This document shows, in pieces, positions 3,308 to 58,189 of a stretch of 64,000 nt of DNA; the stretch's first letter is position 1; the number at the start of each line of letters is the position of its first letter. Both the position numbers and the translations under genes were made by a program. Location of the stretch: positions 8,249 to 72,248 of IMG/VR virus record IMGVR_UViG_2871105481_000001; one strand, given 5' to 3'. Source of the stretch: a virus. Its lineage: Duplodnaviria > Caudoviricetes. The notes beneath the pieces were generated by a model. The model was not told where the DNA came from. It worked only from the letters and a program-made list of their open reading frames with translations, and made no database searches.

Positions 3308-3909
3308 TACTTTCTTATTTTATCAATTATACTTTTTATGAATGTAGATTTCCGGAAATAGACTATTAATCCCATAATAATAATTATGGCTAATCCCCAC
3401 CAGAAAAACACCGCATAGGCTCCAAACTGAAGTCCAGTACTCTTTACTTTTTCTGCCAGATCTTTAACTTCATTGGCGGCTTTAGAAATTGTTTCCTGAG
3501 ATACAGCCTCCCGAGAAAGCTTCTGAAGCTCATTTAGATTTTCTTTTTTGTCTTCCTTACTATTACTCTTTTCAGTATTTATTGATTTAGCCCTATAAGT
3601 AACTTCTGCATTACCGGTAACTTTCACACTGGAAATAGTATCTCCGTTTTCTATTTGATGAAATTCTATAGGCTTTCCGGATTCAGCTTTACCTTTTATT
3701 TCAATTTCTGAATTCTTGATTTTATCTAATTGCGTATCTTGGTATTTTGATTCCGATTTTTCAACCTGCTTCACAACAGAATCCTTCTCATCTTCTTTAA
3801 CAACCTTTTCATAAGATTGTTTTATTTCAGAAGTAATTCGCCTATCTAACTTTCTGGATCTACACCCAAATATTAAAAAACAACTAAGTATTATCAGTAT
3901 TGGTTTCAT
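3307..3909 (-). CDS. Unimolecular-spanin-like lipoprotein
   Basis: N-terminal lipobox LIFG-C, coiled periplasmic part, C-terminal TM helix (VFFWWGLAIIIIMGLIVYF); sits between holin and endolysin. Confidence 0.65.
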   Translation of the reverse strand: MKPILIILSCFLIFGCRSRKLDRRITSEIKQSYEKVVKEDEKDSVVKQVEKSESKYQDTQLDKIKNSEIEIKGKAESGKPIEFHQIENGDTISSVKVTGNAEVTYRAKSINTEKSNSKEDKKENLNELQKLSREAVSQETISKAANEVKDLAEKVKSTGLQFGAYAVFFWWGLAIIIIMGLIVYFRKSTFIKSIIDKIRK

Positions 3910-4426
3910 TTGATTTGGTTTTAAGTGAATTTAAATCTGCTGTCTTCTGGAAATTATCAAGCTTACTCATCCACCCTATAGGGGGGAACTTTCCACGGGT
4001 AATTATTGAAAGGTTTCCAAGAGCAGAACCTCCTGGATAAAGGAATACCATAGTTTGTATTAGCATCTTCATATAGATGGCAATAAAGTCTGCATCTTTT
4101 ACGATCTCACGTAACATTTCAAGAACCACATAACCAGCAATACAGCCTCCTACTTTTGTTATTAATCCTAAATAGTTCTTTTTAAAGACAAAATCACGTT
4201 TATAAAAAAGATGTACAACTGTGCCAAGCGCATGATCTACCAGAATAGCAGCCATAACCATTATTATGAAAAATGAATTGTCCATATACCATCCGGTTAC
4301 CTTTTCATTAAATGCAAATGCAACAGCCGGAATCGTCCCCAGTTTAAATAATGCTGGTAGAATCACATGTAGATCCTTTCCCGAGTGCAAAACGTTTAGG
4401 TTTTTAATTAAGAATTTAAGTATCAT
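3884..4426 (-). CDS. Holin
   Basis: Several TM segments with ILVDHALG, basic-ish tail, first gene of the lysis cassette. ATG at 4426 follows the TAG of the upstream gene (4428-4430). Confidence 0.65.
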   Translation of the reverse strand: MILKFLIKNLNVLHSGKDLHVILPALFKLGTIPAVAFAFNEKVTGWYMDNSFFIIMVMAAILVDHALGTVVHLFYKRDFVFKKNYLGLITKVGGCIAGYVVLEMLREIVKDADFIAIYMKMLIQTMVFLYPGGSALGNLSIITRGKFPPIGWMSKLDNFQKTADLNSLKTKSNETNTDNT

Positions 4427-4427
4427 A

Positions 4428-6821
4428 CTATTGGCATTCATTAAATAAGAAATCATCAAGAAGCCCATCAGCATACATTAAAGATCCCATTGTACCCATA
4501 TGTACAACATCATTTACAGTATATTCAATTGTAGTACTTCGCGTATTCTGTGTATATTCATCATAAGAATATCCATTATCAACATCAAAAGAACTAGCAC
4601 AATCAACATATCTAACAAATGAGCTAAGCGCAACTCCTTTATATGACTCATTTTTAATCGCAGATTCGTATAAATTATAGTGTTTAGTCCACAATCTACG
4701 TTGTCTAGAACAACTGAATCCATCATCGAATGTATGACCTGAATTAAGAGGATAATATTGATGGTTTACCAATAAAATTTTGACATCAGAGCTTCCACCT
4801 GCTATCGTATCACAAGCTTGCTTAATTCTATATAATACACGCTTTAGTCTCTCTTTTATGGATGGTATATTGTTTTCATTCCATCCACCCGCAATTATAT
4901 CATTAACTCCACAAGCGAAATAAATGTATTTTGGATATTTACCGGTTCCACATACGCTTTGTATAAACCAAGGAAAATCCATTTGTTTGTTAATCCCATC
5001 ATCGTCTAATTCATTTGGCATGCCAGAATCTGGTCTGAAAAATGGATTCCCAGAAGTTCCATTATTATATGGGATAGTTGTCTCCATTATTATCTCTAGA
5101 CTATTTGCTATAGTATATTTGTTTGTTGAATCACCTTGCATACCAACTAATTCTATTCTACCAGCTCCCATATTATATGCAGGTTTATATAAAATATTAC
5201 CATCAGTAGATCCAGGACTATTTGTATTTAACATTCTTAGCCACTCTTTGCCAATCTTATTTTGATTATAATGCCATAATGAATCTCCTATAATCATAAC
5301 TTGCAAAGTTCCACTCCCTAATGGTAACTTTTTTATAGTAGTAGGCATAGTAGCTTTATATATTGTAGTAGTTTTACTTGCTATTTCAATCCTGTTTAAA
5401 TCAAACACTCTTATAGTTAAAGATCCATTATCATTCAATAATATAAAACGTCCTTTATTTCCATCTCCAGCCATAACTTGATTTCCAGTTGCTTCTATAT
5501 TATAATTTTTTCTGGGTTCAAATCCTGAAAATAAACTTTCTATATACAATCTCTTTTCAATAATATCAATTGAGTAAATTTTTTCCGAAAGCATTATTTC
5601 ACCACTATTATTAGTCTTAATTATAGTGTTCTGAAGACTTTGATCTCCAACTATTTTATTAATTTCATTGGTATTGAATAAAATAGAATCCGTTGAAAAA
5701 TTTACTTTATTAGTGTTTTTAGTCCTCGCATTGAAATATATTCTGGCTGCATTAGCAGGTATTTTAACATTTGTTAAGTTTGAACTTGTTCCAGAAATTC
5801 TAGCAGGAGTACTATCTGCAAATTGTAAATAAGTAAAACAAGAAAAATTACAACTACTTATATATTTAGCACCTATTGGTATGGAAATCCATCCTACTTT
5901 ATCTCCAGAAGAGTTAGGCACATATATACCTCCATCCATCACAGTCCCATTTTGTAAGTTAGGATCATCTAAGCCAGTATATTTACTTATAGGCACAGAA
6001 ATTATATTAGGATCAGGAGAGTCAAATGATATTTTAGAATCAACATATTTTTTTACAGAATCTTGTTGAACTTGTTCATATGAAGCTAACATATTTACAA
6101 TTGGAACTGATATTCCTACTTTTTGCCATACTACATATATAAATTGAGCGCCATCTGGAATAGAAACTGTTGTTTCAATTGGTTGTGTCGGATTTGGTAA
6201 AGTATTAATTGCTGAATCAAGTAAACCCGTCAAAACATTATTAATATCTCCTGACATTATAGTAGGATACTTTGATTGTACACCTAGTAGAGTTAATGGT
6301 ATTATTCCATTAAAATAAACATTTTTTTCTCCTGATTGAAGATTTATTTTTTGATATCTATAACCAGAATCAGAAATAATAGTACCAGTATTTACATCAA
6401 TAAGTCCTTCAGTTACAGAATTCATTTCAACATTTCTAATCAATGAAGGTCTTGTAAATGAATCTAAAACTTTAGCTAAAACAGTAGCTCTTTTATTTGC
6501 AATTGCATTTGATGAATTTGCATTAAAGTCTTGATCAACTTGTACCTTCGGTTTTTCGCTTAATTCTTTATAAGCTACACCATTCTTAACTAATACATAT
6601 ACATAGTTATTATCTAATTCAAGCTGGGTAACTGTAATATTTGGAGTGACATTTGTGTAAGTTCCTGCATTAAACACATCATACTTATAGTATCCATTTG
6701 TAGGTATATCTGAAGCTAAAACTTTACTTAAATCACCATTAATTCCTGTTACTGCAATTTTTCTTACATCATTAAGTTTAGCATCTGTTTCTACTTTTGT
6801 ATAGTGGATTGTATCTGCCAT
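4428..6821 (-). CDS. Tail spike/fibre with C-terminal SGNH/GDSL esterase domain
   Basis: IIGDSL (block I), FACGVNDII (block III), DVVH (block V); YTKVETDAKL fibre linker at the N-terminus; tail-module context. Confidence 0.7.
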   Translation of the reverse strand: MADTIHYTKVETDAKLNDVRKIAVTGINGDLSKVLASDIPTNGYYKYDVFNAGTYTNVTPNITVTQLELDNNYVYVLVKNGVAYKELSEKPKVQVDQDFNANSSNAIANKRATVLAKVLDSFTRPSLIRNVEMNSVTEGLIDVNTGTIISDSGYRYQKINLQSGEKNVYFNGIIPLTLLGVQSKYPTIMSGDINNVLTGLLDSAINTLPNPTQPIETTVSIPDGAQFIYVVWQKVGISVPIVNMLASYEQVQQDSVKKYVDSKISFDSPDPNIISVPISKYTGLDDPNLQNGTVMDGGIYVPNSSGDKVGWISIPIGAKYISSCNFSCFTYLQFADSTPARISGTSSNLTNVKIPANAARIYFNARTKNTNKVNFSTDSILFNTNEINKIVGDQSLQNTIIKTNNSGEIMLSEKIYSIDIIEKRLYIESLFSGFEPRKNYNIEATGNQVMAGDGNKGRFILLNDNGSLTIRVFDLNRIEIASKTTTIYKATMPTTIKKLPLGSGTLQVMIIGDSLWHYNQNKIGKEWLRMLNTNSPGSTDGNILYKPAYNMGAGRIELVGMQGDSTNKYTIANSLEIIMETTIPYNNGTSGNPFFRPDSGMPNELDDDGINKQMDFPWFIQSVCGTGKYPKYIYFACGVNDIIAGGWNENNIPSIKERLKRVLYRIKQACDTIAGGSSDVKILLVNHQYYPLNSGHTFDDGFSCSRQRRLWTKHYNLYESAIKNESYKGVALSSFVRYVDCASSFDVDNGYSYDEYTQNTRSTTIEYTVNDVVHMGTMGSLMYADGLLDDFLFNECQ

Positions 6822-15938: not shown

Positions 15939-18900
15939 CTACTTTTTATTCTGCTTTATAACATTTTCGTACTCAGAAAATACTGCTTTTGATAATATCT
16001 TTTGAGATTGTAGTTGTTCAAAAAATCTTCTTTTTTCTGTTGATGACATACCTTCTGAGTATGTATAAATAAGCAATGCTTTATTCTTAACATTATTATT
16101 TGTTCCATATTTCACATCAAATACCATAGATGAAATACCATCTTTTTTGACAAGTGATTTAATTCGGTTAACTAAATCTTTTTGTATAACTGGATCTTTA
16201 GAATATCCTTCTATATCTGCAATTAAAGATTTTTCGTTTTTCAACAATTCATTTACTGAACCATATTTACTTAATATCTGTTTAGCTTTATTACGAGTTT
16301 CACCATATTCATCAGTATTTTTATCTAACTGTTCTTGAACCAATGCTTTTTTATTTAGTTGTCTATTAAAATCTGAAGTTTCACTTAAGATCCTTTTTAT
16401 AAATGAATCATAAATTACTCCTGCCCTTTTCTTAGCATCTACATCTGTTACTATAGCATCTGCTCCACCATACATTATACCAACAAATGGATTGGTCTGG
16501 GGGGATGTTATGATACTTTCAACTAATGCTTTCAATCTTACTGGTGAATCATCTAATGCTTTTCCTAATTCCTTATAGAACTCTTCTACATTTGCTTTAT
16601 CAGCACCTTCATATTTCCGGCTAACCTTACCAATATCAAAAGATAATGGTTGTTCTCTAAATGTATCATACCCAGTGTAATATTGTGTTAAACCTTTACT
16701 TGCAGGATTACTACCAATTAATTTAAATGCAGCATCAAAGTAACTTTGTGATTTACTAGGATCTTCTAATGCTGATGCTAAATGTGTTGGATCAATATTA
16801 TCACCTAATGCTTTTGTAAAATTCTTCCAGGTATTTTTTATACTTCCTCTTTTAGTCATCCCAACTGAACTACGGATATGATCTTCATAAGCCCCTTCAA
16901 ATAGAATTGATATTGGTGTTAATTGTTGGGCTTTTGCAATTCTTAAAACTTTCCATTGTTTTTCTTCTTTATCCCATCCTACAGGAATATTCCAATAATT
17001 CATTTTTTGAGAAGGAGAAATTCCATCAAGGAAATCTGCATATGATTTATTTACAGGTTCATCTTCTTTTTCTGGAGGTCTAATTAATCCCATAATGAAA
17101 TTAATCATTAAATGCATTCCTAATACAGGTAATCCAGCTGCTTGGATTATTCTCACTGAGGTATCAAGTGGATTTCTTTTTATAGCCTCCACCATTACTC
17201 TTGTACCTTGCGTTGCAGCGTTTAGATATGGAATAACAGCTTCAGCAGATTTTGTAAATGTTCCACCCTGGTTGAAATCTAATAACCCTCTTGATGAGGC
17301 AACAGCTTCATAATACATATTATTTTTGTCTTCATTAGATAATTCTTCAACAGATTTGTAAGATGTATTATTTAGCTTATTATATACTTTCAGTTGGTTT
17401 TGAAGTGATCTATCAAATACTGCAACTCTAAACATTGTTTCACTATAATTTGATAAAGACTTTAATCTTGCGAAATTGAATAAAGTACTTAATGTTTTTT
17501 TAGATTTTGGATCAATTCTACTATCAAAATAATTCCCAATAGTTTTATTAAGAGATGTTAAATCTTTAATTTCACCTTGTTGATTAAGCCACTCCATTCC
17601 TCCACCATACTCTAAATATTTAGTTAATAAAGTTGTTTTATTACTATTACGATGTTTATAAATCTCACCAATAGCTTTTATTGAATCTTTAGTTAACTGT
17701 GCTCCTGCCCTCAATAAAAAACTATTATATTCAGGCGAGAATAATAATGCATGAACAAAGTCTCGTGGTGTATTTGTAAATACAAAACCTGGGTTGTTTC
17801 CAGTTGCAAATGCTTTAACAAGTCTACTTCCAGACCATGTAGAAATAGTCTTAGCTAAATCTGAATTAACTAACTTGTCCATAGTGTCATGCCACATTTT
17901 ATGAAATTCTTCTTTCATGAATACCTGTTGACGAACACCATTCTCATAATAGTAAGCAATTTTATAACCTTCTGGTGTTGTAGATTCATACTTAGGCTTA
18001 CCACTTTCAGTAAATCCAATTATTCTATTTTCTTTAATATTACTTTGTAATTGTTTGAAATATTTATAGAACTTCTTATCACTCTCTGCAATATTATCCG
18101 AATTAATAGATTCATACTTTGCTTTAGCGTCTGGGTAATACTTAGTAAAGAATGTTCTATTTATTTCATTCATCCCAATAGCCTTATATCTACTGGCTAA
18201 TGTTGATTGAATTAACCATTTAGAATCCATTAACATATCAGATGCATCTCCTTCTGATAAACCTATAATTTGCTCTTTAGATAAATTTCCATTTTCATTT
18301 CTAAACATGGTTCTATCTGATGACATTAATTCTCCATCAGCATCTAATATATAACGTAGGAATTTTCTTGGTTGGTAGTCTACATCTTTTAATTCTTTAT
18401 ATACTTCATTACTTATAAGCCCACTTTCTTGCATATCAGATAAGATGGTTTTAAAAGCATCAAAATAAGCATCAGCCCTTTTATTAAGTTTTGTAAACGC
18501 ATCTTCTCCAATTTCAGATTTATATGCATCCAATGCTTTCTGTGCTGTACTTGCATCTTGGTATCCTGGATGATCTATAACTGGTAATCCCTTTTCTTCA
18601 CGATTTTTATCAATTGCAAGAAATCTTTTTGCAGCTATTATTTTATCTAGTAATTCTAATTCTGATCTGTTAAGTCCATCATATACACTTTTTTGAACTT
18701 TATCAAATTTTTCTTTGGCAATTGTAGAAGATCCTGCATAAGCAATCATTCTATTTGAAACTGCTTTTGCACCAATGTTTTCTAAAATTCTCTTTGGTAT
18801 AAATTGTCTATCAACACCAGATACTATTCCACGTTCTACTTTATTTTTCAACCAGGCTCTAAACTTTTGATTAAATGACATAACGTTACCATTTTCATCT

Positions 18901-21900
18901 TTAAACCTTTTAGTTAAAACTTCTTTCGAAGATTTATAAGAATCATCTAGTTTTTTTCTTGCTTCTTCAGGCGAAATAGTTTTATTAACTAATCTATTAT
19001 AAGCTGACTCTACCATTCTTTGTTCATCAATAGAATTAAAAGAATCTTTAATTTCCTGTAATGATTTACCAGAATTAAATTGTTGTTCAACAGTTTGGCT
19101 TACTTCATTATATTTATCAGTCGTTCTCTCTATTTGAGTTTTATTTCGTTCTTCTGCTTTCGTATTAATTTTATTAAATAATTCTGTAAACTTGTTGAAG
19201 TTTGAAATTGAATTACGGGTGCTTAGAATTCCAGTTGCAGCTTTTAGTAAACGCGAAACTTCAGTTGGAGTTATCTTCCCACTAATCATATTTTGATTAA
19301 GGAAAATTACAGTGTTATCATATGCTTCTTTTGCTTGCCTTTTTCTTTCTGCGACCTTTTCTCTATATGATTTATTAGATTTCCTTAATTCTTCAATTTT
19401 ATTTTTATAATTCTCATGTATCTTCTCAATTTTATTGAAGGCAATTTCTTTTTCTTTTTTAGAAGTTTGTTCTTTTACTTTTTCAACAGCAGTTTTTTTC
19501 TTATTAATCTGATCTTCACGATGAAGAATAACTTGCTCTTGCATAAGTTTTGTTATTCCTTCACTGTCAATTAAAGCTTTCTGTTTATCAGATAAACTTT
19601 TATAAAATGCAGACTCTTTAAATTTAGCTAACCCAGCCTCAATACCATTTGTTTCAGTTTCATTTAATACTTCTTGAATAGTTGATACTGGCATAAGTTT
19701 TTTAATCATAAATCTTACACCAGAATATGCTTGAAGATTAATTGAACCATCAGCTTCCTTTAATCTATTTATATGTTCATCAATAGACTTCTGTAATTGA
19801 AACTCTTGTTTTAATTCTGTGTTGTTTTTAAAACCAAACAATCCTTTTATATATTCTACAATTCTTGTTAATAAAGGTTTTGGTTCAGGATTATTCAAAT
19901 AGTCTAAATAATTATCAACTTCTGATTTAAAGTTGTCATTGGCAATATATTCAGCTATGAATTCATAATTATTAGAATAGCCATAAGCATTTGTTTTATT
20001 CGGATTCTTTAATGCTTCTTCGTAAGCTGAACGTGCTTCATTTCTAAATGTAAGTTCTTGTTCATTTAATTGTGAAGAGTCTATATTATCAGCTAGGTAG
20101 TATGAAGTGAAAACATGTGCTAATTCATGTTGTACTAATTTTGTTTTAAGAAAATTATTTAAATCTGTAGCTCCTTCTTTGATATAAATTGAATTTCCTT
20201 TCGCCTCACCTATTGCATCATTAAAAACTTGGGTAACAATGCCATCTAAAAGCTCTTGTCTTAAATATGATTCTTGATAAGTACCATTATCTATTAGAAC
20301 TTGATAATCCTTCAATAAGCCATCAACATATGAGTTTATTTCTTTTTCTGATTTATTGAATAAATTTTCATTTATAACATAAATTTTAGTATCAAATTTT
20401 CTTGCAAGATTCGCTATATCGTCTGAAATATTATATCCTTTTGCAATTAATTCATCTATACTAGTAGTATTATCTCCAAAGAAATTTGATAATTCAACAT
20501 CATCTTTTATCTTTAGCTTATTTGTATTATCTGTCCTAATAGAGAAATTAACATTATTTATACTAGGATTTTTAAATCCATTAATTAGGTCTATAGTTTC
20601 TTTTAAGAATTTAACATTGTTTGAATTTATATCTTCAGTTAATAATTTGATAGAATCTGTATTTTTATCATATCTAATTTTAACAATAGAATCACCAATA
20701 TTTATATTATCTCTTAGTACTTCAATTATTCCCTGCTTATTTATATATTTAATACCATCATAATTATTTAGTAATCTCGCTCTTAATCTATTAATATTAT
20801 TTAATGCAAATCCTGTTTTTATTGTATTTATTTTATCAGATGAGTTCTCTTCATTTAATGAAAGTATTAAAGCAATATTTTTATTATTAGAATTCTTTAA
20901 AGCAGTTAAAAATTCTAACCTATCCTTAGTTTTTTTACCGTCTTCATAATTATCAAAAACGGCAACTGGATCTTGAATATTATCTACTATATTTCTTAAA
21001 TTCTGAATATCTGAAATTTCATGTTTACTTTGTTTAATGATTTTATTAAATAAATATGATAAATTAACATTCATTTCATTATCAGAAACCCCTATTGATT
21101 TAAGTAAAGTACTTGGTCGCCCTAAATCAATTGTATAATTCTCATCATTAAATCTGCTTTCTTTTACAATTCTAATTGTATTTTCATTAGTTAGTTCTCC
21201 ATTTTTTAACTTCTCCTTATTTTTAAGGAATGTACTGTATTCTTTAATATGTCTTTTAGTAGATTCTGCAATATTATTAAGCTCATTACTCCCTAAACTA
21301 TAATTAATATTAGATGATTTTGAATTTTCAGAACTTAATATTTTTTCATTCATTAAGTCACCTAAAACTTTATTTGTAAAGTTATTTAAAGATATATTTG
21401 GATTTAAATTACCAATACCTAATACATCACCTATCTTATTGAAAAAGGCTCTAAACCACTGTACAAATTCAGCCATTTTCCCCCTAGCCTGACGTTCTTG
21501 AAATTGCCATTCTCCATAGTTACCTATATGAGTATTTAATGCTTCATTCCATAATTCGTTATCAGATAAATTATTATAATTACCTTCATATTTTAATCTA
21601 TTGAATATTTCTTTTCCGGTTTTAGTCTGTTTTAATAGTTCAACTCCATTTTTAAATCTACTTGGCATTAACTGTTCCCATAAATGGGAAAACTCATGTA
21701 TTGGAGTATTAGCATTTAGATATTCAGGGTTAATATAAATAGTACCATCTGGTAACTTTGCTCCATAAATAGTACCATTATTTTGCATGAATTTTATATC
21801 ATTATCACTTACAACTACATTGTTTGAACTTAGTTCATCTAAATTATTAATACCATCCAAAGTATTTTTATTTTTAATAAACTCATTCCAATCAGTAGTT

Positions 21901-24900
21901 ATTTTTAAATTCTTAAATGTTTTTGAAAATGGTTTTTTAAGCTTTTCAATTAATGAATCAAATTCTTCTTGAGATATAGGAGTAAAGTTTTCTGATGATT
22001 TTTGTAATTGAATTGGATTACCTGATTCATCTTTTAAGTTCTGAACTAATGGAGATCCTGTGAAATATGTTTTACCATCATCACCTTTAATAGTTAATCT
22101 ACCTTTATTTTCTGATTCAACAACTCCACTTCTAGTATCACCAAATTGATTGAATGAAACTCTTTTGCCTATATAATTGGAGGATGATGTACTTTCTGTA
22201 ACCGGAACTTCAGTTTTAATTTTAGATTGTTTAGATAAACTAAACCCTCTTTGCTTCTGATTTATGAACTTGTCAACTTCAGTTTGATCAGAAAAATCAA
22301 ATTCACTGTCTCCATTTCTATCTTCTATTAAATTTCCATTATTATCAGTTACAGTTACTCTATAGCCATTATCTCCATCTGGCAATCTAATTTCTTTAGT
22401 TGTAGCTATTACATTTTCTGATAATCTAGTTTTATTTGGATTTAGCTCATTTGATACGGATGTTTCTTGTGAACGCAAATCATTCGGATTTACTTCAACT
22501 TGGTTAGTACTTCCTGGTAATTCATTGGCTTGTACTGTTTCACTATTTGAAGTTTGTTGTTCCTGATTGATATCAGGTGCATATTGAACTCTTTCATTAG
22601 AGTTAGTACTACTTCTCGTTTGGTCATCAGATATTTTATTTATTCTAGCTAATAAATCATCAAAATTTACTTCTTCGGAAATGTTGGAAGTTTGGGTATT
22701 TTCATTTTGCCTAATGGCTTCAGTGGGTGAATTTGTAGATTCGACAGATGCGTTTTCATTGATAGAAGACTGTTGTTCCGGTTGTTGTGTATTTTGTCGA
22801 ATATCGTTTTGTGGGTTACCTTGTTTTTCATTTTTATTTTTAGTTGTTTGAGCGTTTTTTTCATCTATTTCATTTGCAACTTTTAATCCTTCAGAAAATT
22901 TATTTATTGAAAGGTTTGGAAATCTATTTTGAAGATCATTTAATAATTCAGGATATTCTTCAACCAATCCATCATTAACTAAAATACCTTGTACTTGATT
23001 AATATCTTTTATTTCTGGATCTGTAGATATAAGCATAAAACTTCCATTTGAATATGCTGCCCCTGCACCAATTCCAGATGAAGCAGCACCAGACCCTTCT
23101 AGAGGAGCTGTATATAAAAATCCATTACCTCTATTCTTATCAATACCATTATCAAAAAGATTTAAAAGTTCCTTAAGGCTTCCTCCTAATCCTGATTTAC
23201 CCATTCCATGAGCAAAAAATCGGTTCTGAAGTCCTGCATTTAAAATATCTTTCATAGTCTTTGGAAACATTCCATATCCTAATGTTAGAATACTTCCATC
23301 TCTATTTTGAAAATATATTTTTCTCCAAAGAGCTTCTAATGCTGATTCACTTATTTTTGTTTTATTATTTTCATCGGGGTTAACTGTATTGTTTTCTGTT
23401 TCTTGTCCTTGTGTTCTTTCTGATGTTTGTTCTGTTGATGTGGTATTCTCATTAGTAGGTTTTTGATTTAATATTTGGTCAACTTGTGATTCTAGTGATG
23501 AAATTTCAGATTCTATTCTAGGTTTGAATGCAGCATCTGCTTGATTTAAATCATTACGTTTCGTCTCTAATTGTTGAAGTACTTTTATTGCACTATCTAA
23601 ATAATCAGTAGAATAATTCTGTGAATCTGGAATCTTATTGATATATTTTTGCCTTGTTAATACTTCATTTTTAACATCATCTAATGTATTTGAAAAACTA
23701 TCAAAACTAGAATCATTTGACATTACTTTTAACATATTATTAGCCCCATCAAATCGAGACAATTCTGTAAGTAATTGGCTTCTATTATAGTTAGATAAGT
23801 TTATTTCATTATTACCTAATTTAATATTTCTAGAACCTGAACCTCCCATTAAAGATGCTATTGCGGAAGGAACAATTGTTCCAACAACTACATCTTTATA
23901 TCCTTCACTATCTGTTAATTTAAAATCTGATCCATAAATAATATTAGTAACATAATTAGTCATGTCACCAACAACTTGCTGAATTAATTCTTCTTTAGTT
24001 TCTCCAACTACATTATCTCCTATTTTTGAAAACAATGATTTTGCATTAGCTAAAATTCGCTCTCCATTACTAGTGCTTAATGAAGAAAGTAGTTGTTTGT
24101 ATTCATTATTAAACCCGGAAAGAAATTTACTGTCTGGATTAATTCTTTGAATTAATGATTGAATAAATGAATTTACAGTAGCATATACTGTTTTGCCTGC
24201 TGTGGATGAAATTCCTGAGTCTTCAGCACTTTTATAACTATCATTATACATTTGAACAAACCAGCCTGATACTGATTTGTTTTCAATTGAATTAGCACCT
24301 TGAGCATATCTTGCAAAATTTCTAGCTTGTTTTGCAATTTCACTTTCTGCACCAAAAGCTTGAGTTGTTTTTGAAGCAAGGCTTATTGCGTTATTAGTTA
24401 TTGTATTATTTATTAATCCACCAACTTCATTTGTTATTAAGATATCTCCAGCCATCTTACCTGTTAAGAAAGCCATACCTGAAGGATTATATTCTGAATC
24501 TTTTCCAGTTTCTTTTAAACCGGATATATTACTAACAGGTTTATAAATTCCATTTTCAATCTGGAATAATTTACCATTTCTTTCTTCAAAAACTCTACCT
24601 GAATTATCACTATATTTTGTAACATTTGTTCTTAATGGTGATATCTCAATATTACCAAGCTTTAAAGGTTCACTTAATTGATCAGCTGAATCTTTTACAT
24701 CTTGACTAAAGGGTGTAGTAAGTATTCTTAAAATACCTGAACTAGCATCTATTGCTGATTGCCCTAATCCTAAAACTACTTGGCCTAAAATATTCTGTGT
24801 TCTTGCAATACCATCACCATTTAATACTCTTGCTTGGAAATCTTGTGCTTCGGAGTCTTCTTTATTTACTCTTGTAAATATTTTATTTACATCAGATGTA

Positions 24901-26483
24901 ATACTATCATTTTGTTGTACATTTTTTATATTATTCTGAATACTATTCTGAACAGTATTTATTTGATTTACATACTGATTTACTAAATTAAAATCACCAG
25001 TTTCTGCTGCTGACTGGACATTATATTTTAGATTATATATATTATTTTGTTTAGCTTCAATATCTAATAATTCTTTCTGATTAGTCCAGTTAGAAAATGC
25101 ATTCCAAATATTCTTTCTATTTCTCTGTCCATTTGTATTATTTCTAATACTCTGATCTGTTCTAGTGTACAACTGGCCTTCTTCACTATCTAAAAATTCC
25201 CCAAATAGTTTTTTAAGATCATAGTTCTTTTCAACTTCTAAATAGAATTTATTCTCCGCAACATCATCTGGCATGATTTCATTATCTGAACCCAATCTAT
25301 TACTAAAGTCATCAAAGGCGGTTTGTTTTTGATTATCCATCATCGAAGACAATACACTTTGAGCTTTATCTAAATAAAATTCATCTGGCTTATTATAACG
25401 TCTACTTACCATATCATATACTTGTTGGTAAGTTGCATTTGGATAAGATCCTAATTCTTGTTGTGTTTCAAGCGTAATTTGAAGTTCTTTTCTTCCTTCT
25501 GGTGTTTGAAGATAATTTGATCTATCTTCTTCTGTTACTAGATATCCGTATTTATCAAAAAGTGAATTTGTGTATTTTTCAAGATCAGTTAATTCCGGTT
25601 TATCAGGTGATAACTTTTGTTTAGCAGCTTCATAGTTATTTCCTTCAACATATTTTTCAGATTCTTTTGTGAAATATTCTGCACCATTCTTAGTTATTTC
25701 AAAAGCAGGCAAACCATTTTCTAAAGTAGCTCTTGTACCATCTTTGAGATATGAAGGCTTTATGTATCCTTTCGATTCTAGATCTTTTGCATATGATTCT
25801 GGATCATTAATATTAGCTCCTGTAAAATCCTGATAAGAATAATCTAATAGTTCTCCAGGTTTATATTGTCTTGGAGATAAATAATTTTTTGGTAATTGAG
25901 TAAAATCTACTTTAGATTCATATGGTAAATAAATATTAGGAACAGTTACACCACTATTAAAAGTAGTTGTATTATTATTTGGATTATCATTTGGAAAACT
26001 AATCGTACCTACTTTACTTTTAGCATTACCATTTTCATCCAAAACTAGATTATCCATATTACCTTTATAGGATAATGGATTCTGAGTATTTATAGGTAAA
26101 TTAGTTGTAAACGGAGTGCCATTATTTCCAGACGTTAAAGCTGATTCTGAATTTGAATTTACCAAGTTGGAAACTCCATTCTGTTGATCTAATTGATTCT
26201 GATTTAGGTCTAATTGTGAATCTATTGGAACACTTAATGTTTCTTGTTGTGTATTTTGCCCTATTGAAATAGGATTTATATTTTCTCTGTTGTTGGATGT
26301 TGACAAGCCTTGTGAGCTTAATAAGCCTGTATTTGTATCGTCTTTTTTTTTTAATGAAGTTGTATCTTGAATTAAAGCTGAGAAATCATTAGGCTCAAGA
26401 TAGGACTGCATGTTTAAAAAGTCTTCTAATGATAAGTTACCACCATTACTTTGGTATTGTAGATAAAGTTCTTCTGGATTCAT
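15939..26483 (-). CDS. Giant (3514 aa) polyvalent/DNA-ejection protein: two zincin-like HExxH modules, MuF-C-like segment, C-terminal LPD38-like region
   Basis: NTPIHEFSH (21684-21698), HELAH...EFIAE (20115-20129), QDPVAVF segment, DFNQGGTFTK..IPYLNAATQG near the C-terminus; last of three ejection-type genes. Confidence 0.65.
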   Translation of the reverse strand: MNPEELYLQYQSNGGNLSLEDFLNMQSYLEPNDFSALIQDTTSLKKKDDTNTGLLSSQGLSTSNNRENINPISIGQNTQQETLSVPIDSQLDLNQNQLDQQNGVSNLVNSNSESALTSGNNGTPFTTNLPINTQNPLSYKGNMDNLVLDENGNAKSKVGTISFPNDNPNNNTTTFNSGVTVPNIYLPYESKVDFTQLPKNYLSPRQYKPGELLDYSYQDFTGANINDPESYAKDLESKGYIKPSYLKDGTRATLENGLPAFEITKNGAEYFTKESEKYVEGNNYEAAKQKLSPDKPELTDLEKYTNSLFDKYGYLVTEEDRSNYLQTPEGRKELQITLETQQELGSYPNATYQQVYDMVSRRYNKPDEFYLDKAQSVLSSMMDNQKQTAFDDFSNRLGSDNEIMPDDVAENKFYLEVEKNYDLKKLFGEFLDSEEGQLYTRTDQSIRNNTNGQRNRKNIWNAFSNWTNQKELLDIEAKQNNIYNLKYNVQSAAETGDFNLVNQYVNQINTVQNSIQNNIKNVQQNDSITSDVNKIFTRVNKEDSEAQDFQARVLNGDGIARTQNILGQVVLGLGQSAIDASSGILRILTTPFSQDVKDSADQLSEPLKLGNIEISPLRTNVTKYSDNSGRVFEERNGKLFQIENGIYKPVSNISGLKETGKDSEYNPSGMAFLTGKMAGDILITNEVGGLINNTITNNAISLASKTTQAFGAESEIAKQARNFARYAQGANSIENKSVSGWFVQMYNDSYKSAEDSGISSTAGKTVYATVNSFIQSLIQRINPDSKFLSGFNNEYKQLLSSLSTSNGERILANAKSLFSKIGDNVVGETKEELIQQVVGDMTNYVTNIIYGSDFKLTDSEGYKDVVVGTIVPSAIASLMGGSGSRNIKLGNNEINLSNYNRSQLLTELSRFDGANNMLKVMSNDSSFDSFSNTLDDVKNEVLTRQKYINKIPDSQNYSTDYLDSAIKVLQQLETKRNDLNQADAAFKPRIESEISSLESQVDQILNQKPTNENTTSTEQTSERTQGQETENNTVNPDENNKTKISESALEALWRKIYFQNRDGSILTLGYGMFPKTMKDILNAGLQNRFFAHGMGKSGLGGSLKELLNLFDNGIDKNRGNGFLYTAPLEGSGAASSGIGAGAAYSNGSFMLISTDPEIKDINQVQGILVNDGLVEEYPELLNDLQNRFPNLSINKFSEGLKVANEIDEKNAQTTKNKNEKQGNPQNDIRQNTQQPEQQSSINENASVESTNSPTEAIRQNENTQTSNISEEVNFDDLLARINKISDDQTRSSTNSNERVQYAPDINQEQQTSNSETVQANELPGSTNQVEVNPNDLRSQETSVSNELNPNKTRLSENVIATTKEIRLPDGDNGYRVTVTDNNGNLIEDRNGDSEFDFSDQTEVDKFINQKQRGFSLSKQSKIKTEVPVTESTSSSNYIGKRVSFNQFGDTRSGVVESENKGRLTIKGDDGKTYFTGSPLVQNLKDESGNPIQLQKSSENFTPISQEEFDSLIEKLKKPFSKTFKNLKITTDWNEFIKNKNTLDGINNLDELSSNNVVVSDNDIKFMQNNGTIYGAKLPDGTIYINPEYLNANTPIHEFSHLWEQLMPSRFKNGVELLKQTKTGKEIFNRLKYEGNYNNLSDNELWNEALNTHIGNYGEWQFQERQARGKMAEFVQWFRAFFNKIGDVLGIGNLNPNISLNNFTNKVLGDLMNEKILSSENSKSSNINYSLGSNELNNIAESTKRHIKEYSTFLKNKEKLKNGELTNENTIRIVKESRFNDENYTIDLGRPSTLLKSIGVSDNEMNVNLSYLFNKIIKQSKHEISDIQNLRNIVDNIQDPVAVFDNYEDGKKTKDRLEFLTALKNSNNKNIALILSLNEENSSDKINTIKTGFALNNINRLRARLLNNYDGIKYINKQGIIEVLRDNINIGDSIVKIRYDKNTDSIKLLTEDINSNNVKFLKETIDLINGFKNPSINNVNFSIRTDNTNKLKIKDDVELSNFFGDNTTSIDELIAKGYNISDDIANLARKFDTKIYVINENLFNKSEKEINSYVDGLLKDYQVLIDNGTYQESYLRQELLDGIVTQVFNDAIGEAKGNSIYIKEGATDLNNFLKTKLVQHELAHVFTSYYLADNIDSSQLNEQELTFRNEARSAYEEALKNPNKTNAYGYSNNYEFIAEYIANDNFKSEVDNYLDYLNNPEPKPLLTRIVEYIKGLFGFKNNTELKQEFQLQKSIDEHINRLKEADGSINLQAYSGVRFMIKKLMPVSTIQEVLNETETNGIEAGLAKFKESAFYKSLSDKQKALIDSEGITKLMQEQVILHREDQINKKKTAVEKVKEQTSKKEKEIAFNKIEKIHENYKNKIEELRKSNKSYREKVAERKRQAKEAYDNTVIFLNQNMISGKITPTEVSRLLKAATGILSTRNSISNFNKFTELFNKINTKAEERNKTQIERTTDKYNEVSQTVEQQFNSGKSLQEIKDSFNSIDEQRMVESAYNRLVNKTISPEEARKKLDDSYKSSKEVLTKRFKDENGNVMSFNQKFRAWLKNKVERGIVSGVDRQFIPKRILENIGAKAVSNRMIAYAGSSTIAKEKFDKVQKSVYDGLNRSELELLDKIIAAKRFLAIDKNREEKGLPVIDHPGYQDASTAQKALDAYKSEIGEDAFTKLNKRADAYFDAFKTILSDMQESGLISNEVYKELKDVDYQPRKFLRYILDADGELMSSDRTMFRNENGNLSKEQIIGLSEGDASDMLMDSKWLIQSTLASRYKAIGMNEINRTFFTKYYPDAKAKYESINSDNIAESDKKFYKYFKQLQSNIKENRIIGFTESGKPKYESTTPEGYKIAYYYENGVRQQVFMKEEFHKMWHDTMDKLVNSDLAKTISTWSGSRLVKAFATGNNPGFVFTNTPRDFVHALLFSPEYNSFLLRAGAQLTKDSIKAIGEIYKHRNSNKTTLLTKYLEYGGGMEWLNQQGEIKDLTSLNKTIGNYFDSRIDPKSKKTLSTLFNFARLKSLSNYSETMFRVAVFDRSLQNQLKVYNKLNNTSYKSVEELSNEDKNNMYYEAVASSRGLLDFNQGGTFTKSAEAVIPYLNAATQGTRVMVEAIKRNPLDTSVRIIQAAGLPVLGMHLMINFIMGLIRPPEKEDEPVNKSYADFLDGISPSQKMNYWNIPVGWDKEEKQWKVLRIAKAQQLTPISILFEGAYEDHIRSSVGMTKRGSIKNTWKNFTKALGDNIDPTHLASALEDPSKSQSYFDAAFKLIGSNPASKGLTQYYTGYDTFREQPLSFDIGKVSRKYEGADKANVEEFYKELGKALDDSPVRLKALVESIITSPQTNPFVGIMYGGADAIVTDVDAKKRAGVIYDSFIKRILSETSDFNRQLNKKALVQEQLDKNTDEYGETRNKAKQILSKYGSVNELLKNEKSLIADIEGYSKDPVIQKDLVNRIKSLVKKDGISSMVFDVKYGTNNNVKNKALLIYTYSEGMSSTEKRRFFEQLQSQKILSKAVFSEYENVIKQNKK

Positions 26484-41257: not shown

Positions 41258-41713
41258 ATGAAACAACTAAAGATTGAAATTCCTGAAGGATTTAAAGTAG
41301 ATGAATTTAATCCAGAATCAGGTATTATTAAATTCAAACCTATACCACAGAATATTAAAGATATAATTAAAACACTAGATGATGTTTATAACTATCATGA
41401 TATAGATAAAGATGAATTTAACAGAAGGTTCAAATCATGTACTGAAGATGAAATTGCCTATAAACATCTAAAGTTAATAACTTCTGCTTTAAACGAAGGT
41501 TGGGAACCAGATTGGGGGAATGGACAATGGGATAAGTGGTTCAACTGGTTCAACATGCCATCAAAAAATGGCCGGTTCTCGTTCTGCGACTCCTTTAATC
41601 GGTACTCGTTTTCGCATTGCTCTGCCCGCCTTTGCTTTAAATCCAAAGACCTTGCTCAGTACGCTGCAAAGCAATTCTTAGAGGTGTATGAGAAATATAT
41701 GGTTATTAAGTAA
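41258..41713 (+). CDS. DGR target protein 1 (distal)
   Basis: Carries VR1; paralog of 55335-55820 and 55832-56203 (ALNEGWxPDW...GRFSF...RLC). Confidence 0.9.
   Translation: MKQLKIEIPEGFKVDEFNPESGIIKFKPIPQNIKDIIKTLDDVYNYHDIDKDEFNRRFKSCTEDEIAYKHLKLITSALNEGWEPDWGNGQWDKWFNWFNMPSKNGRFSFCDSFNRYSFSHCSARLCFKSKDLAQYAAKQFLEVYEKYMVIK
41569..41634 (+). repeat. DGR variable repeat VR1
   Basis: Ungapped to TR 56243-56308; 16 mismatches in 66 nt, all opposite TR adenines. Confidence 0.92.
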
Positions 41714-54290: not shown

Positions 54291-55328
54291 ATGAAAACAA
54301 CCATTTATGGAAGTCTTCAAAACAACTATAACAAAGATATGAATTATTTAGAATTAAAACAAGACACTACCCTTTCTCATAATTCGGAAATGCAATATTT
54401 CAATTCATTTTTCCAGGATCTTTTAAAAGGGTTACAGAGTGGTAAATACATTACGGACAAGGGTACTAAATATTCTCTTACCACAATAAGACATTATAAA
54501 AATGCTTACGACTGGTTTGTTTTTTGGGAAGCTCACATTGGTATTCAATTACAAATGAATGAGGTAATATACAATACTGTTGAAATGTTTAAAACGTTTC
54601 TTAGCCATTATCACCTAACATTAAATAGTGTATCAGTTATTATCTCTAAAATTAAATCTGTCCTAAACTTTGCTTTTAAGTCGGGTAAGCATTTTTGGAA
54701 TGGAACAGGAATAAAGATTGTAAAGGAAAAAAATCCAAAAACGTATTTAACAATTGAAGAATTAAAGCAAATGCGTTCATGTAAATCTTTAACTGCTGCT
54801 GAAGAAATGGTTTTAGACAATTTTACAATTCAGTTTTATATTGGTCAAAGGTATGAAACAACACAAAGATTCTTAAAGCAACCTTTTGCGTTTACAAGAC
54901 AACATGGAGAATTTTCATATATAGAAATTGAAGCATATAAAACTGGAACCGTTTCATATATCCCATTAGGAGAGATAGTTAAGGGTATTATACAGAAATA
55001 TAATGGTTTAGTGCCTGTTTATTCTAGGACTTACATTAATCGGATAATTAAAGTGGTTGCGTTTAAAGCAGGATTAATTCAATTAATTGCAACTCGTGAA
55101 ACGCGTAATCAAAAAGTTGTTAGAGAGTTTATTCCAAAATATTCTCTTATATCTACACACACTGCAAGAAGATCCTTAGTATCAAATCTTAAACAATTAA
55201 ATTTTTCAAATCAATCAATAATGGGAATTACATCTCATGGTACAGAAGTACAGTTAAATGACTATAACAGGTCACAAGTAGAAAAAATAAAATCAATATT
55301 AGGTCACGAATTTTTCCTGAAAATATAA
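54291..55328 (+). CDS. Tyrosine recombinase with SAM-like N-terminal domain (second integrase)
   Basis: Catalytic set R (IGQRY), K (YKTG), HxxR (HTARR), H (TSHG), Y (LNDY). Confidence 0.85.
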   Translation: MKTTIYGSLQNNYNKDMNYLELKQDTTLSHNSEMQYFNSFFQDLLKGLQSGKYITDKGTKYSLTTIRHYKNAYDWFVFWEAHIGIQLQMNEVIYNTVEMFKTFLSHYHLTLNSVSVIISKIKSVLNFAFKSGKHFWNGTGIKIVKEKNPKTYLTIEELKQMRSCKSLTAAEEMVLDNFTIQFYIGQRYETTQRFLKQPFAFTRQHGEFSYIEIEAYKTGTVSYIPLGEIVKGIIQKYNGLVPVYSRTYINRIIKVVAFKAGLIQLIATRETRNQKVVREFIPKYSLISTHTARRSLVSNLKQLNFSNQSIMGITSHGTEVQLNDYNRSQVEKIKSILGHEFFLKI

Positions 55329-55334
55329 AATCTC

Positions 55335-55820
55335 ATGAAGAATTTAGAAATCACTCAAGAAGCAGCAGTAAAAGCATACTCTGAAGCTTCAAAAAATGGA
55401 AAACTATTACTAGAAAATCTTTTTGGAAAAAATGTATTTCTTGTAGATATTAAAGAAAGAATTAAATCTATTGAAGATGCAATTAATGAACTTGGAGAAA
55501 ATGATGATGAAGTAATTGTATTAAGAGCCTTAGAAGTAGCTGGTATAAGTAATCATATTTTATATACACAATGGTTAGTAGTTATTACCAAAGCTCTAAA
55601 CGAAGGTTGGGAACCAGATTGGGGGAATGGACAATGGGATAAGTGGTTCAACTGGTTCAATATGCCATCAAAAAATGGCCGGTTCTCGTTCTACTGCTCC
55701 AATTATCAGTACTCGGTTTCGGTTTGCGCTTCCCGCCTTTGCTTTAAATCAAAAGACCTTGCTCAGTATGCTGCTAAGCAATTCATAAACACTTATGAAA
55801 AATCTTATACTAATCAATAA
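55335..55820 (+). CDS. DGR target protein 2
   Basis: Contains VR2; C-terminal 188 nt near-identical to target 1 outside the VR. Confidence 0.9.
   Translation: MKNLEITQEAAVKAYSEASKNGKLLLENLFGKNVFLVDIKERIKSIEDAINELGENDDEVIVLRALEVAGISNHILYTQWLVVITKALNEGWEPDWGNGQWDKWFNWFNMPSKNGRFSFYCSNYQYSVSVCASRLCFKSKDLAQYAAKQFINTYEKSYTNQ
55676..55741 (+). repeat. DGR variable repeat VR2
   Basis: Ungapped to TR 56243-56308; 15 mismatches in 66 nt, all at TR adenines. Confidence 0.92.
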
Positions 55821-55831
55821 AACTAATTTAA

Positions 55832-56203
55832 ATGAATATAACAGATAAAGTAAAAAGTTTTGAGGATGCTTGTCAATTATTAGGAATAAAACCTGATGTT
55901 CCAAAAGTATCATTATTGCCAGAAAAACATCAAAAAGCAATAGTAGCACATTATAAATTGATAATTATTACTGAAGCATTAAATGAAGGATGGACACCTG
56001 ATTGGAGTAATTGGAATGAAAGAAAATATTATCCTTGGTTTGAAATGAGTGATTCTTCTGGCCGGTTCTCGTTCGACGGCTCCGATCATCGGTGCTCGAC
56101 TTCGACTTGCGCTTCCCGCCTTTGTCTAAAAACATGGGAATTAGCAAATTACATAGGAGAATCGTTCATTGATTTATATAAAGATTATTTCATAATAGAT
56201 TAA
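55832..56203 (+). CDS. DGR target protein 3 (minimal core domain)
   Basis: Contains VR3; VKSFEDAC..LG...ALNEGWTPDW..RLC. Confidence 0.9.
   Translation: MNITDKVKSFEDACQLLGIKPDVPKVSLLPEKHQKAIVAHYKLIIITEALNEGWTPDWSNWNERKYYPWFEMSDSSGRFSFDGSDHRCSTSTCASRLCLKTWELANYIGESFIDLYKDYFIID
56052..56125 (+). repeat. DGR variable repeat VR3
   Basis: Ungapped to TR 56236-56309; 16 mismatches in 74 nt, all at TR adenines. Confidence 0.93.
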
Positions 56204-56235: not shown

Positions 56236-56309
56236 ATTCTTCTAGCCAGTTCTCGTTCAACAACTCCAATAATCAGAACTCGAATTCGAATTGCACTACC
56301 CACCTATGT
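56236..56309 (+). ncRNA. DGR template repeat (TR)
   Basis: Non-coding, between target 3 and RT; 7 AAC/AAT triplets in frame with the VR codons. Confidence 0.93.
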
Positions 56310-56413
56310 TTTTAATATAAAAACTGTAAACCTTACCTCTTGGTAAAAAATAACTCACTTTCATAAAGGCGTTGGTAAGTTTTACTGAAAACGACTTTTC
56401 TAAAGCAAAGATT

Positions 56414-57376
56414 ATGAAAAGAATAAACAATTTATTTGAAAAAATAATTTGCATTGACAATCTAAAACAAGCAGATATAAATGCTCAAAAAGGAAAAAGC
56501 AAACAATATGGAGTAAAACTACACAATAAAAATAATGAGTTAAATATTATTGAGTTATATAACACACTTAAATATAAACAATACAAAACCTCACAATATG
56601 ACGTATTCAAAATAACCGAACCTAAAGAAAGGGAAATATACAGACTTCCATATTTTCCTGATAGAATAATGCATCATGCTATTATGAATATATTAGAACC
56701 AATATTTGTTTCAACTTTTACTAGTGATACCTATAGTTGTATAAAGAAAAGAGGTATACATAAAGCTTCATATAATTTAAGAAAAGCTCTTAAACATAAA
56801 ACTGAAACTTTATTTTGTTTAAAGCTTGATATTAAGAAGTTCTACCCAAATATTAACCATGATATTTTAAAAACCTTACTAACAAAAAAGTTTAAAGATA
56901 AAGACCTATTATGGCTTCTATATGAGATAATTGATAGTGCTCCAGGTTTACCAATTGGTAATTATTTAAGCCAATATCTAGCGAACTTTTACCTAACATA
57001 TTTTGATCATTGGGTAAAAGAAGAATTAAAAGTTAAGTACTACTTCAGATATGCAGATGATATAGTAATACTTAATAGTTCAAAAGAAAACCTTCACATA
57101 ATATTAAATCAAATTAAATACTATTTAAACACTAAACTAAAATTACAAGTAAAAGAAGATTGGCAAATATTTCCGGTAGAAAAAAGAGGTATTGACTTCG
57201 TTGGATATGTTCATTATCATAGTCATGTTAAACTTAGGAAATCAATTAAGAAGAAATTTGCAAAAATATTAAAAAGAAGTCCTAATAAAGCTTCAATTGC
57301 ATCTTACTCTGGATGGACAAAACACTGTAACTCTCAAAATCTTATGAAAAAACTTTTAAATAATGTTCCACTTTAG
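56414..57376 (+). CDS. DGR reverse transcriptase
   Basis: PKEREI..LPYFPDRIMHHA, LKLDIKKFYPNI, GLPIGNYLSQ, YFRYADD, GIDFVGY; about 320 aa with no maturase/endonuclease tail. ATG 56414. Confidence 0.95.
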   Translation: MKRINNLFEKIICIDNLKQADINAQKGKSKQYGVKLHNKNNELNIIELYNTLKYKQYKTSQYDVFKITEPKEREIYRLPYFPDRIMHHAIMNILEPIFVSTFTSDTYSCIKKRGIHKASYNLRKALKHKTETLFCLKLDIKKFYPNINHDILKTLLTKKFKDKDLLWLLYEIIDSAPGLPIGNYLSQYLANFYLTYFDHWVKEELKVKYYFRYADDIVILNSSKENLHIILNQIKYYLNTKLKLQVKEDWQIFPVEKRGIDFVGYVHYHSHVKLRKSIKKKFAKILKRSPNKASIASYSGWTKHCNSQNLMKKLLNNVPL

Positions 57377-57659
57377 TGATTTTAACATCAAACCTAAAGA
57401 AAACACATTTACAGGGAAAAAAATAGATATAGATGATATTTTAAATATTGAAATTATCATTAACAAATATCAAATAAAAGATTCAATAAAAAAATCAAAT
57501 TCAAAATATCTCACATTACAAATTGAGATAAATAAAACTCATAGAATTGTCTTCACTGGATCTAAAAACCTAATTGATTTAATAAGTCAAGTACCAGAAG
57601 ACAAATTTCCATTTTCTACGACAATAAAAAAGAATGATCGTAGACTAGAATTCACTTAA
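57363..57659 (+). CDS. Small unknown protein overlapping the RT stop (candidate DGR accessory factor)
   Basis: 98 aa, 14-nt overlap with RT; FTGKKIDIDDILN...LQI...VFTGS..LI...FPFSTTI, beta-rich. Confidence 0.7.
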   Translation: MFHFSDFNIKPKENTFTGKKIDIDDILNIEIIINKYQIKDSIKKSNSKYLTLQIEINKTHRIVFTGSKNLIDLISQVPEDKFPFSTTIKKNDRRLEFT

Positions 57660-57676
57660 CAAATAAAAATATTATT

Positions 57677-58189
57677 ATGAAAAACATTTTAGTAGTAACA
57701 CTATTAGTTGTTACAACTGCATTACATGCACAATTTACAAAAGGAACCAAATTTATTGAAGTTGGTTCTTCATCAAATGACTTAAGAGTTTCTCCAACTG
57801 GATTCATGTTTTATATTTCTGATGAAAAAGAAAGGTCTATTGTTATTGGACTGTCTGGAGGATATTTTATATCTGATGGTTTAGCTTTAAAATTAGGTAC
57901 TGGATTTTCTTATTCAAAACTTAGAGATTTAGATGCTCTAAAATCATATGGAGTTTCAGGTGGAATTGAATATTATATTTCAAATAAATTTCCTGTTGAA
58001 ATTAGATACTCAGCTTCATTTAGAGATCAATATAAAGATTCTCATTTCTTAACATTAAAAGTTGGTTATGCAAAAGTATTTGATAAGAAGTTTGTTTTAA
58101 AACCTTTTGCGTTTATCGAAAAATCTTTAAACAATTATTATGCAAATGGTGCTGGTATAGGTGTTTCATTTTCCTACAATTTCAAGTAA
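57677..58189 (+). CDS. Small outer-membrane beta-barrel protein
   Basis: Signal peptide (..ALHA|QF), alternating amphipathic strands (GLSGGYFISDGLALKLG), terminal GVSFSYNF. Confidence 0.75.
   Translation: MKNILVVTLLVVTTALHAQFTKGTKFIEVGSSSNDLRVSPTGFMFYISDEKERSIVIGLSGGYFISDGLALKLGTGFSYSKLRDLDALKSYGVSGGIEYYISNKFPVEIRYSASFRDQYKDSHFLTLKVGYAKVFDKKFVLKPFAFIEKSLNNYYANGAGIGVSFSYNFK

Follow-up and report, generated by a model that had tools for sequence, protein, structure and literature searches.

How does a DGR reverse transcriptase (RT) manage when its phage encodes no Avd? The DGR of BPP-1 requires Avd, which docks on the N-terminal extension of the RT and clamps a spacer stem-loop, and a long single-stranded RNA "thumb ring" wraps the RT thumb (10.1101/2023.10.23.563531). 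The avd gene is missing from about a quarter to a third of the DGRs catalogued so far. Wu et al. 2017 described four accessory classes, namely avd, HRDC, MSL, and CH1, together with four tenuous candidates, PAG1-4, and reported that 29% of DGRs carry no accessory gene and that avd does not occur in Lineage 3 (PMC5758913). From this survey it was concluded that an Avd-independent mechanism must exist, and no factor was named for most Avd-less DGRs (PMC5758913). The question is raised again by a stretch of 64,000 nt (hereafter the window), which covers positions 8,249 to 72,248 of an AT-rich provirus record of 72,248 nt. Here we analyzed the ORF that overlaps the 3' end of the RT gene in this window, and we named its product X98. 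Our results suggest that X98 is probably a new kind of DGR accessory (helper) subunit.

A DGR locus without Avd

The coordinates of the DGR and of the related loci discussed below are collected in Table 1. The RT product matched the Pfam family RVT_1 with an E-value of 2.6e-20 and phrog_1423 with an E-value of 3.5e-118. Its gene has an alternative in-frame TTG start at 56372, upstream of the ATG, and ends with a TAG stop codon at 57374-57376. When the template repeat (TR) was compared with the variable repeats (VRs), all mismatches in the repeat core were located at TR adenines. With a DGR-type RT and a TR/VR pair that differs at TR adenines, the element in the window is a genuine DGR.

The initial annotation had described a 98-aa ORF whose start is placed 14 nt within the RT gene, at its 3' end, which we confirmed on the sequence, and it had stated that the last target and the RT have no ORF between them and that no Avd is found nearby. 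The interval from the end of the last target at 56203 to the RT indeed contains only the TR and the spacer, with no intervening sense-strand ORF, and the sole frame of at least 50 aa in it is a 54-aa minus-strand TTG frame that overlaps the TR. The statement on Avd can be extended to the entire provirus, since the Avd family PF05635 gave no match in any of its 72,248 nt while the positive control genome was matched. PF05635 was also absent from all 79 X-bearing related phage records, including the 25 records with a completeness of at least 90%. The same profile matched 322 of 401 Bacteroidota genomes, often with about 10 copies, which serves as a control of sensitivity; because the family is so common there, a PF05635 match in Bacteroidota is no evidence of a DGR.

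Several other features of the prophage were noted. The gene located 3' of X98 (57677-58189) encodes 170 aa with a signal peptide and a weak match to an outer-membrane beta-barrel family (PF13505, E = 0.012); the product looks like lysogenic-conversion-type cargo, and the gene is not kept beside the DGR in other phages. A gap of 6 nt separates the end of a tyrosine-recombinase-like ORF at 54291-55328 (Phage_int_SAM_5, phrog_1 integrase) from the first adjacent DGR target, and an integrase is also present at the end of the window. In the structural-gene region, one ORF of 3,514 aa occupies positions 15939-26483 of the minus strand.

Table 1. Positions of the DGR features in the window and of selected features in related loci
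Record	Feature	Position	Strand	Remarks
Window	X98 gene	57363-57659	+	98 aa, ATG start; candidate DGR accessory subunit
Window	DGR reverse transcriptase (RT)	56414-57376	+	320 aa, ATG start; RVT_1, phrog_1423
Window	Overlap of X98 start and RT 3' end	57363-57376	+	14 nt; X98 in +1 frame
Window	TR-RT spacer	56319-56413	+	about 95 nt, ORF-free; position as Sp RNA segment of BPP-1
Window	Template repeat (TR)	about 56236-56318	+	repeat family; adenine-specific mismatches to VRs
Window	Variable repeat (VR) in target ORF 55832-56203	56059-56134	+	match to TR
Window	VR in target ORF 55335-55820	55676-55751	+	match to TR
Window	Remote third VR, in ORF 41258-41713	41570-41645	+	from 14-nt seed match at 41570 only
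L229	VR	2181-2296		order VR-X-TR-RT
L229	X gene	2366-2722
L229	TR	2748-2863
L229	RT	3001-4017
L113	ORF122-type ORF	4636-5004
L194	ORF122-type ORF	3968-4330
L200	ORF122-type ORF	3962-4372
L229	ORF122-type ORF	3980-4417
L279 (hankyphage BK010646.1)	ORF122-type ORF	3785-4270
L046	Small ORF inserted between RT and X	4729-5001
L049	Small ORF inserted between RT and X	4471-4731
L079	Small ORF inserted between RT and X	4460-5005
L099	Small ORF inserted between RT and X	4766-5005

X98 belongs to a conserved family linked to the RT

The closest homologues of X98 were from Elizabethkingia. We obtained 127 close homologues, nearly all with exactly 98 residues and aligned without gaps, and when the profile was run against 1.84 billion cluster representatives, 894 matched at E <= 1e-3, of which 441 reached E <= 1e-10. 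The near-constant length of the 127 homologues and the 894 representatives indicate that the X98 ORF is not a chance frame. When we searched Pfam, no family was assigned to X98, and 38 diverse members of the X family gave nothing consistent, with no SSB, tRNA_anti, or related family among the results. X98 matched phrog_19665 of the PHROGs collection (E = 1.2e-9), with residues 3-91 aligned to profile positions 4-94 of 105; this PHROG corresponds to X98 over the full length and itself carries no function or stated link to DGRs.

We then examined how closely the gene is associated with the RT. When loci were chosen by similarity to X98 in IMG/VR and GTDB genomes, an RT homologue with 50-95% identity was located directly upstream on the same strand in 102 of 102 loci. 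When loci were chosen by similarity to the RT, two IMG/VR scans provided 420 and 562 confirmed RT relatives, and 80 loci were kept from each. In one scan, the X module was found downstream of the RT in 74 of the 78 loci with enough downstream sequence; in the other, which represents a sister clade, 77 of the 80 loci carried it. X98 was absent from the RT loci L167, L180, L189, and L194, suggesting that some contexts may not require it or that the X98-less elements may be decaying. In a sample of 401 Bacteroidota genomes, X98 matched four besides the seed genome, and three of these four carried the RT. The fourth, at L111 and without an RT, was weak and partial (E = 4.6e-4) and lay within a 461-aa ORF, and we discarded it as a probable false positive.

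Distant members of the family, with 24-45% identity, keep the RT beside them wherever the context is readable. Elizabethkingia bruuniana and Sphingobacterium carry such members in Mu-like prophages, and others are located in gut phages of the integrase type, where the X member has a different, 469-aa neighbour. The linkage therefore holds across phage backbones and differing target types, and homologues were not encountered away from DGR RTs, in agreement with the earlier proposal that this ORF serves the DGR. The genes that follow X98 in 103 loci were assigned to 63 unrelated clusters, of which the largest has 9 members, and this shows that conservation ends exactly at X98. Among 134 distinct loci, 133 have an X start that overlaps the end of the RT gene, with 14 nt as the commonest length of the overlap (72 loci). 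Here, we need to consider that the loci all belong to a single broad RT lineage, and that shared descent thus accounts for part of the co-occurrence of X and the RT.

A few loci depart from this arrangement. In a few lineages, unrelated small ORFs of 80-182 aa lie between the RT and X with X kept (Table 1), and the junction seems to tolerate small insertions. The X match of Chryseobacterium sp. YIM B08800 (L103:5001-5197) is short and split and looks like a decaying copy. The locus of E. bruuniana CP035811 (L115) also has a decaying look; its RT gene is uncalled in the source annotation and the RT match is shortened, with X98 intact.

The X module is fused to the RT in several phages, including hankyphage

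At least six single in-frame RT-X ORFs were found (P0247, P0262, P0269 on two contigs, L185, L196, and L102), and the mutual identity of these six fusions was only 42-57%. In a FastTree phylogeny of the RTs, the fused state required five changes, at least three of which were forced by well-supported branches. The X module joins the RT at the RT C-terminus, on the thumb side. The p00 RT of hankyphage (BK010646.1, 434 aa) is also an RT-X fusion, with the module at residues 327-422. This module matched the X profile with an E-value of 1.5e-16 in hmmsearch and with a probability of 97.7% in hhalign, and the RT part is 33% identical to the RT of the window. The DGR of hankyphage is active in culture and diversifies a tail fibre (PMC12135933). 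A tblastn search of the INPHARED phage collection with X98 gave no match, and hankyphage was reached only when more divergent members of the X family were used as queries.

We next modelled a natural RT-X fusion. The model showed a pLDDT of 95.3, with 93-97 in the OB part, and a pTM of 0.79, a value that does not establish a fixed interface between the RT and the OB part. The RT part was superposed on the BPP-1 bRT (8ub7_A) with a TM-score of 0.92, an rmsd of 2.1 Å, and 30% identity. This close match over the whole length indicates that the basic chemistry of the RT is likely as in BPP-1. The natural fusions give indirect support for an association of X98 with the RT.

The best matches of the X98 model in the BFVD structure database were likewise domains inside phage RT proteins (E = 9e-6, TM-score 0.73). 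A domain that can be superposed on X98 is present in the entries A0A8S5RXI3, A0A8S5MQF5, and A0A7M1RSL3, phage proteins whose annotation reads RT, group II intron protein, or retron-type RT; one of the three is from the crAss-like phage cr7_1. Judging from these predicted structures, the X module may extend to further phage RT lineages.

The X gene moves within the cassette of a sister clade

The 80 loci of the sister RT clade are mostly human-gut records. In roughly half of them X is placed after the RT gene and a further, acidic ORF (ORF122, about 122 aa), and in 34-36 loci X sits between the VR and the TR. In L229, which has the latter order, the slot of X is the avd position of BPP-1. The X gene thus shifts its place within the DGR cassette but remains there, and three forms of the family exist, namely a free gene, a gene moved into the avd slot, and an RT fusion of the hankyphage type.

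ORF122 is small and acidic (pI about 4.9), and it lies directly 3' of the RT gene and overlaps it in 79 of the 80 sister-clade loci. Some basal loci in the clade of the window likewise have it, with the RT on one side and X on the other; the window itself has no ORF of this type. The counterpart of ORF122 in hankyphage, identified by position, encodes 161 aa with a pI of 4.99 and matches DUF4376 (PF14301, 29.7 bits). Since most sister-clade elements carry this second small acidic gene, either ORF122 or DUF4376, X is not the sole candidate helper.

X98 is predicted to adopt an OB fold

In order to examine the fold of X98, we generated an AlphaFold2 model from an alignment of 99 sequences, and the mean pLDDT was 85.9. 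The model contains strands at residues 30-40, 48-56, and 59-65, a helix at residues 68-75, and two further strands at residues 84-91 and 94-97. This order, β1-β2-β3-α-β4-β5, suggests with moderate confidence that X98 has a canonical OB fold. The guess from the sequence that the product is beta-rich and OB-like was thus borne out, and the possibility that its structure would turn out to be Avd-like was not. When we searched for similar structures with VIA, the top rows were nearly all OB domains. The best match was domain II of RuvBL2 (2cqa) with a Z-score of 7.0 over 69 residues at 2.8 Å, and several SSBs, PriB, RPA, and Teb1 were matched with Z-scores of about 4-6, those of several SSBs being 5-6. 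The alignments to OB domains covered 63-69 residues at 2.2-2.8 Å. A Foldseek search of the PDB returned weak OB matches only (E >= 0.01). Our confidence in the fold is limited to a moderate level because of the middling Z-scores and the weak Foldseek E-values. A profile search of the PDB sequences with X98 yielded only spurious matches to the beta-sheet of OspA.

X98 is basic, with a pI of 9.36, and the X family has a pI of 8.97 ± 0.63 (n = 325), with 90% of the members above 8. The fold and the charge together suggest that X98 may bind nucleic acid, although a shared fold alone is no proof of this. A 17-residue N-terminal tail (F4, D6, I9, K10, and F16) is conserved past the 14 overlapped nt, and this tail forms the linker in the RT-X fusions. 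It is a plausible docking segment. The conserved residues of X also include FT-x-S and FPF motifs.

Proposed role of X98 and alternative explanations

We suggest, with a probability of roughly 0.6, that X98 is a dedicated RT-bound OB-fold subunit that binds nucleic acid in an Avd-less DGR lineage of Bacteroidota phages and supplies help of the Avd type. Since the start codon of X98 lies inside the last codons of the RT gene, X98 would be made with the RT from one transcript. As a small basic subunit with an OB fold, X98 would then sit on the RT next to the thumb, where it could grip single-stranded DGR RNA (the TR flanks or the spacer) and/or the nascent adenine-mutagenised cDNA. In this manner it would provide, by different means, the scaffolding and nucleic-acid-binding help that the pentameric Avd gives to the BPP-1 RT. 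We infer that X98 binds physically to the RT and to nucleic acid, that it is needed in cDNA synthesis or retrohoming, and that it has taken over the role of Avd.

A related explanation places X98 after reverse transcription, as a small SSB-like protein that coats and shields the single-stranded mutagenised cDNA and aids its annealing at the VR during integration, in place of a cofactor role in cDNA synthesis. The fold matches of X98 were dominated by OB domains of SSB, PriB, RPA, and Teb1, and an ESM Atlas lead pointed to a cluster in which 44% of the members carry the phi29 SSB family PF17427. In addition, phage ssDNA-binding proteins were among the BFVD matches, the basic charge of X98 would suit such a role, and the literature offers no explanation of how DGRs carry out integration (PMC12135933). 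However, no sequence-level relation to any SSB family was found, and the recurrent fusion to the RT is more easily understood for a subunit of the RT particle than for a stoichiometric coat on ssDNA. We consider a post-synthetic role less likely, but it is a live alternative. A cDNA-binding domain tethered to the RT is possible, and to this extent the explanation overlaps with that of an RT-bound subunit and the same data fit both. It is improbable, in our estimation, that X98 is a negative regulator or specificity factor, that is, an RT-bound brake or a VR-targeting protein. Nothing specific speaks for it, beyond the fact that the data show association only and that small RT-associated proteins can be regulatory, and an inhibitor would be hard to square with the permanent RT fusion that active elements such as hankyphage possess (PMC12135933).

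Two further explanations concern the close spacing of the genes. X98 might be an unrelated phage gene that stands beside the RT by phage kinship, with synteny but no DGR function. All loci derive from one broad Bacteroidota-phage lineage, and Wu et al. 2017 cautioned against small sets of shared flanking genes (PMC5758913), but the linkage persists across Mu-like and integrase-type backbones and across target types, conservation stops right after X98, the gene relocates but remains in the cassette, and it has been fused to the RT at least three times. These observations make mere synteny very hard to credit. We give equally little credence to the idea that an RT-X98 fusion is also, or mainly, produced in the window by a programmed +1 frameshift at the RT stop. 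Positions 57371-57377 read CTT TAG T, which resembles the CUU-U-stop context of prfB; a slip at this site would enter the X98 frame at residue 5, and that an RT-X polypeptide is functional is shown by the natural in-frame fusions. Nevertheless, the last sense codon varies within the class with a 14-nt overlap (CTT in 35, TTT in 15, GTT in 11, and ATT in 6 of 67 loci), GAA, GCA, or CAG stands at the end in other overlap classes, the upstream sequence has no Shine-Dalgarno-like stimulator, and X98 keeps its own ATG in 133 of 134 loci. Since the slippery codon is not conserved across the 67 loci, we rejected frameshifting at CTT-TAG as unsupported.

Significance for Avd-less DGRs

Comparative genomics and predicted structure support the view that this DGR lineage has a new accessory module of wide distribution. 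X is found in hundreds of Bacteroidota phages without Avd, and it represents a concrete, testable, and common candidate factor for Avd-less DGRs. Hankyphage, which is among the most widespread human-gut phages, has a DGR that can already be assayed in Bacteroides thetaiotaomicron. If X proves to be an RT subunit that makes retrohoming independent of Avd, the RNP architecture of X-bearing DGRs differs from the BPP-1 paradigm. Current DGR mutagenesis tools depend on the bRT-Avd pair, and a compact RT with a 98-aa helper, or one fused polypeptide, would be of interest for targeted mutagenesis based on DGRs.

Comparison with known systems

We compared X98 with the accessory classes described so far. 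X98 lacks the defining features of the avd, HRDC, MSL, and CH1 classes, the four that this comparison covers. Pfam matched no HRDC or MutS-like domain in X98, and the predicted fold is OB. CH1 proteins are of 160-169 aa with an acidic pI of 4.7 and occur in Avd-less Lineage 3a DGRs of Bacteroides (PMC5758913). CH1 resembles X98 in that it is found only in DGRs without avd, HRDC, and MSL, in Bacteroidota, and beside the RT, but its size and charge, as described, set it apart from X98 (98 aa, pI 9.4). Compared by description only, the size, charge, position, and host of CH1 fit the DUF4376 ORF of hankyphage and perhaps ORF122. A small ORF with an Avd-like pI and mass near the hankyphage RT has been mentioned before (Benler et al. 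2018). Our literature search found no OB-fold or other non-Avd DGR accessory factor and no C-terminal RT extension, with most subscription journals outside its coverage, so that a prior description is possible. We put at even odds the broader proposal that the X family is a fifth, so far undescribed class of DGR accessory, an OB-fold RT subunit that would make mutagenic retrohoming independent of Avd across a large lineage of Bacteroidota phages.

The OB-fold ssDNA-binding domains of SSB, PriB, RPA, and Teb1, as well as domain II of RuvBL2, share the predicted β1-β2-β3-α-β4-β5 barrel of X98. X98 differs from them in that it has no detectable sequence relation to them, carries the conserved 17-residue N-terminal tail, and is dedicated to the RT. 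The C-terminal D domain of group II intron RTs (GsI-IIC RT, 6ar1) is a nucleic-acid-binding module that follows the thumb of a closely related RT, the place that X takes in the fusions, but the analogy is one of position only. The model of the fused RT-X protein aligned to group II intron RTs over the RT part, with no alignment of the OB part to the D domain. The D domain is not known to be an OB fold.

The closest functional parallel would be Avd of BPP-1. Like Avd, X is small (about 100-130 aa), basic, and encoded within the DGR cassette, in a part of the sister clade even in the slot of avd, and the pI of Avd (9.5 ± 0.7; PMC5758913) is near that of the X family. As is presumed for this parallel, X would work with the RT on the DGR RNA. 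In contrast to the all-helical four-helix bundle of Avd, X98 is predicted to be an OB beta-barrel, with no match to PF05635 or other sequence similarity to Avd, and in the window its gene is downstream of the RT gene and overlaps it. Furthermore, X is fused to the C-terminus of the RT, whereas the Avd pentamer contacts the N-terminal extension of the RT in BPP-1 (10.1101/2023.10.23.563531), indicating that X and Avd are not structurally equivalent. Based on this comparison, we suggest that X98 may be a functional substitute for Avd without being a structural one.
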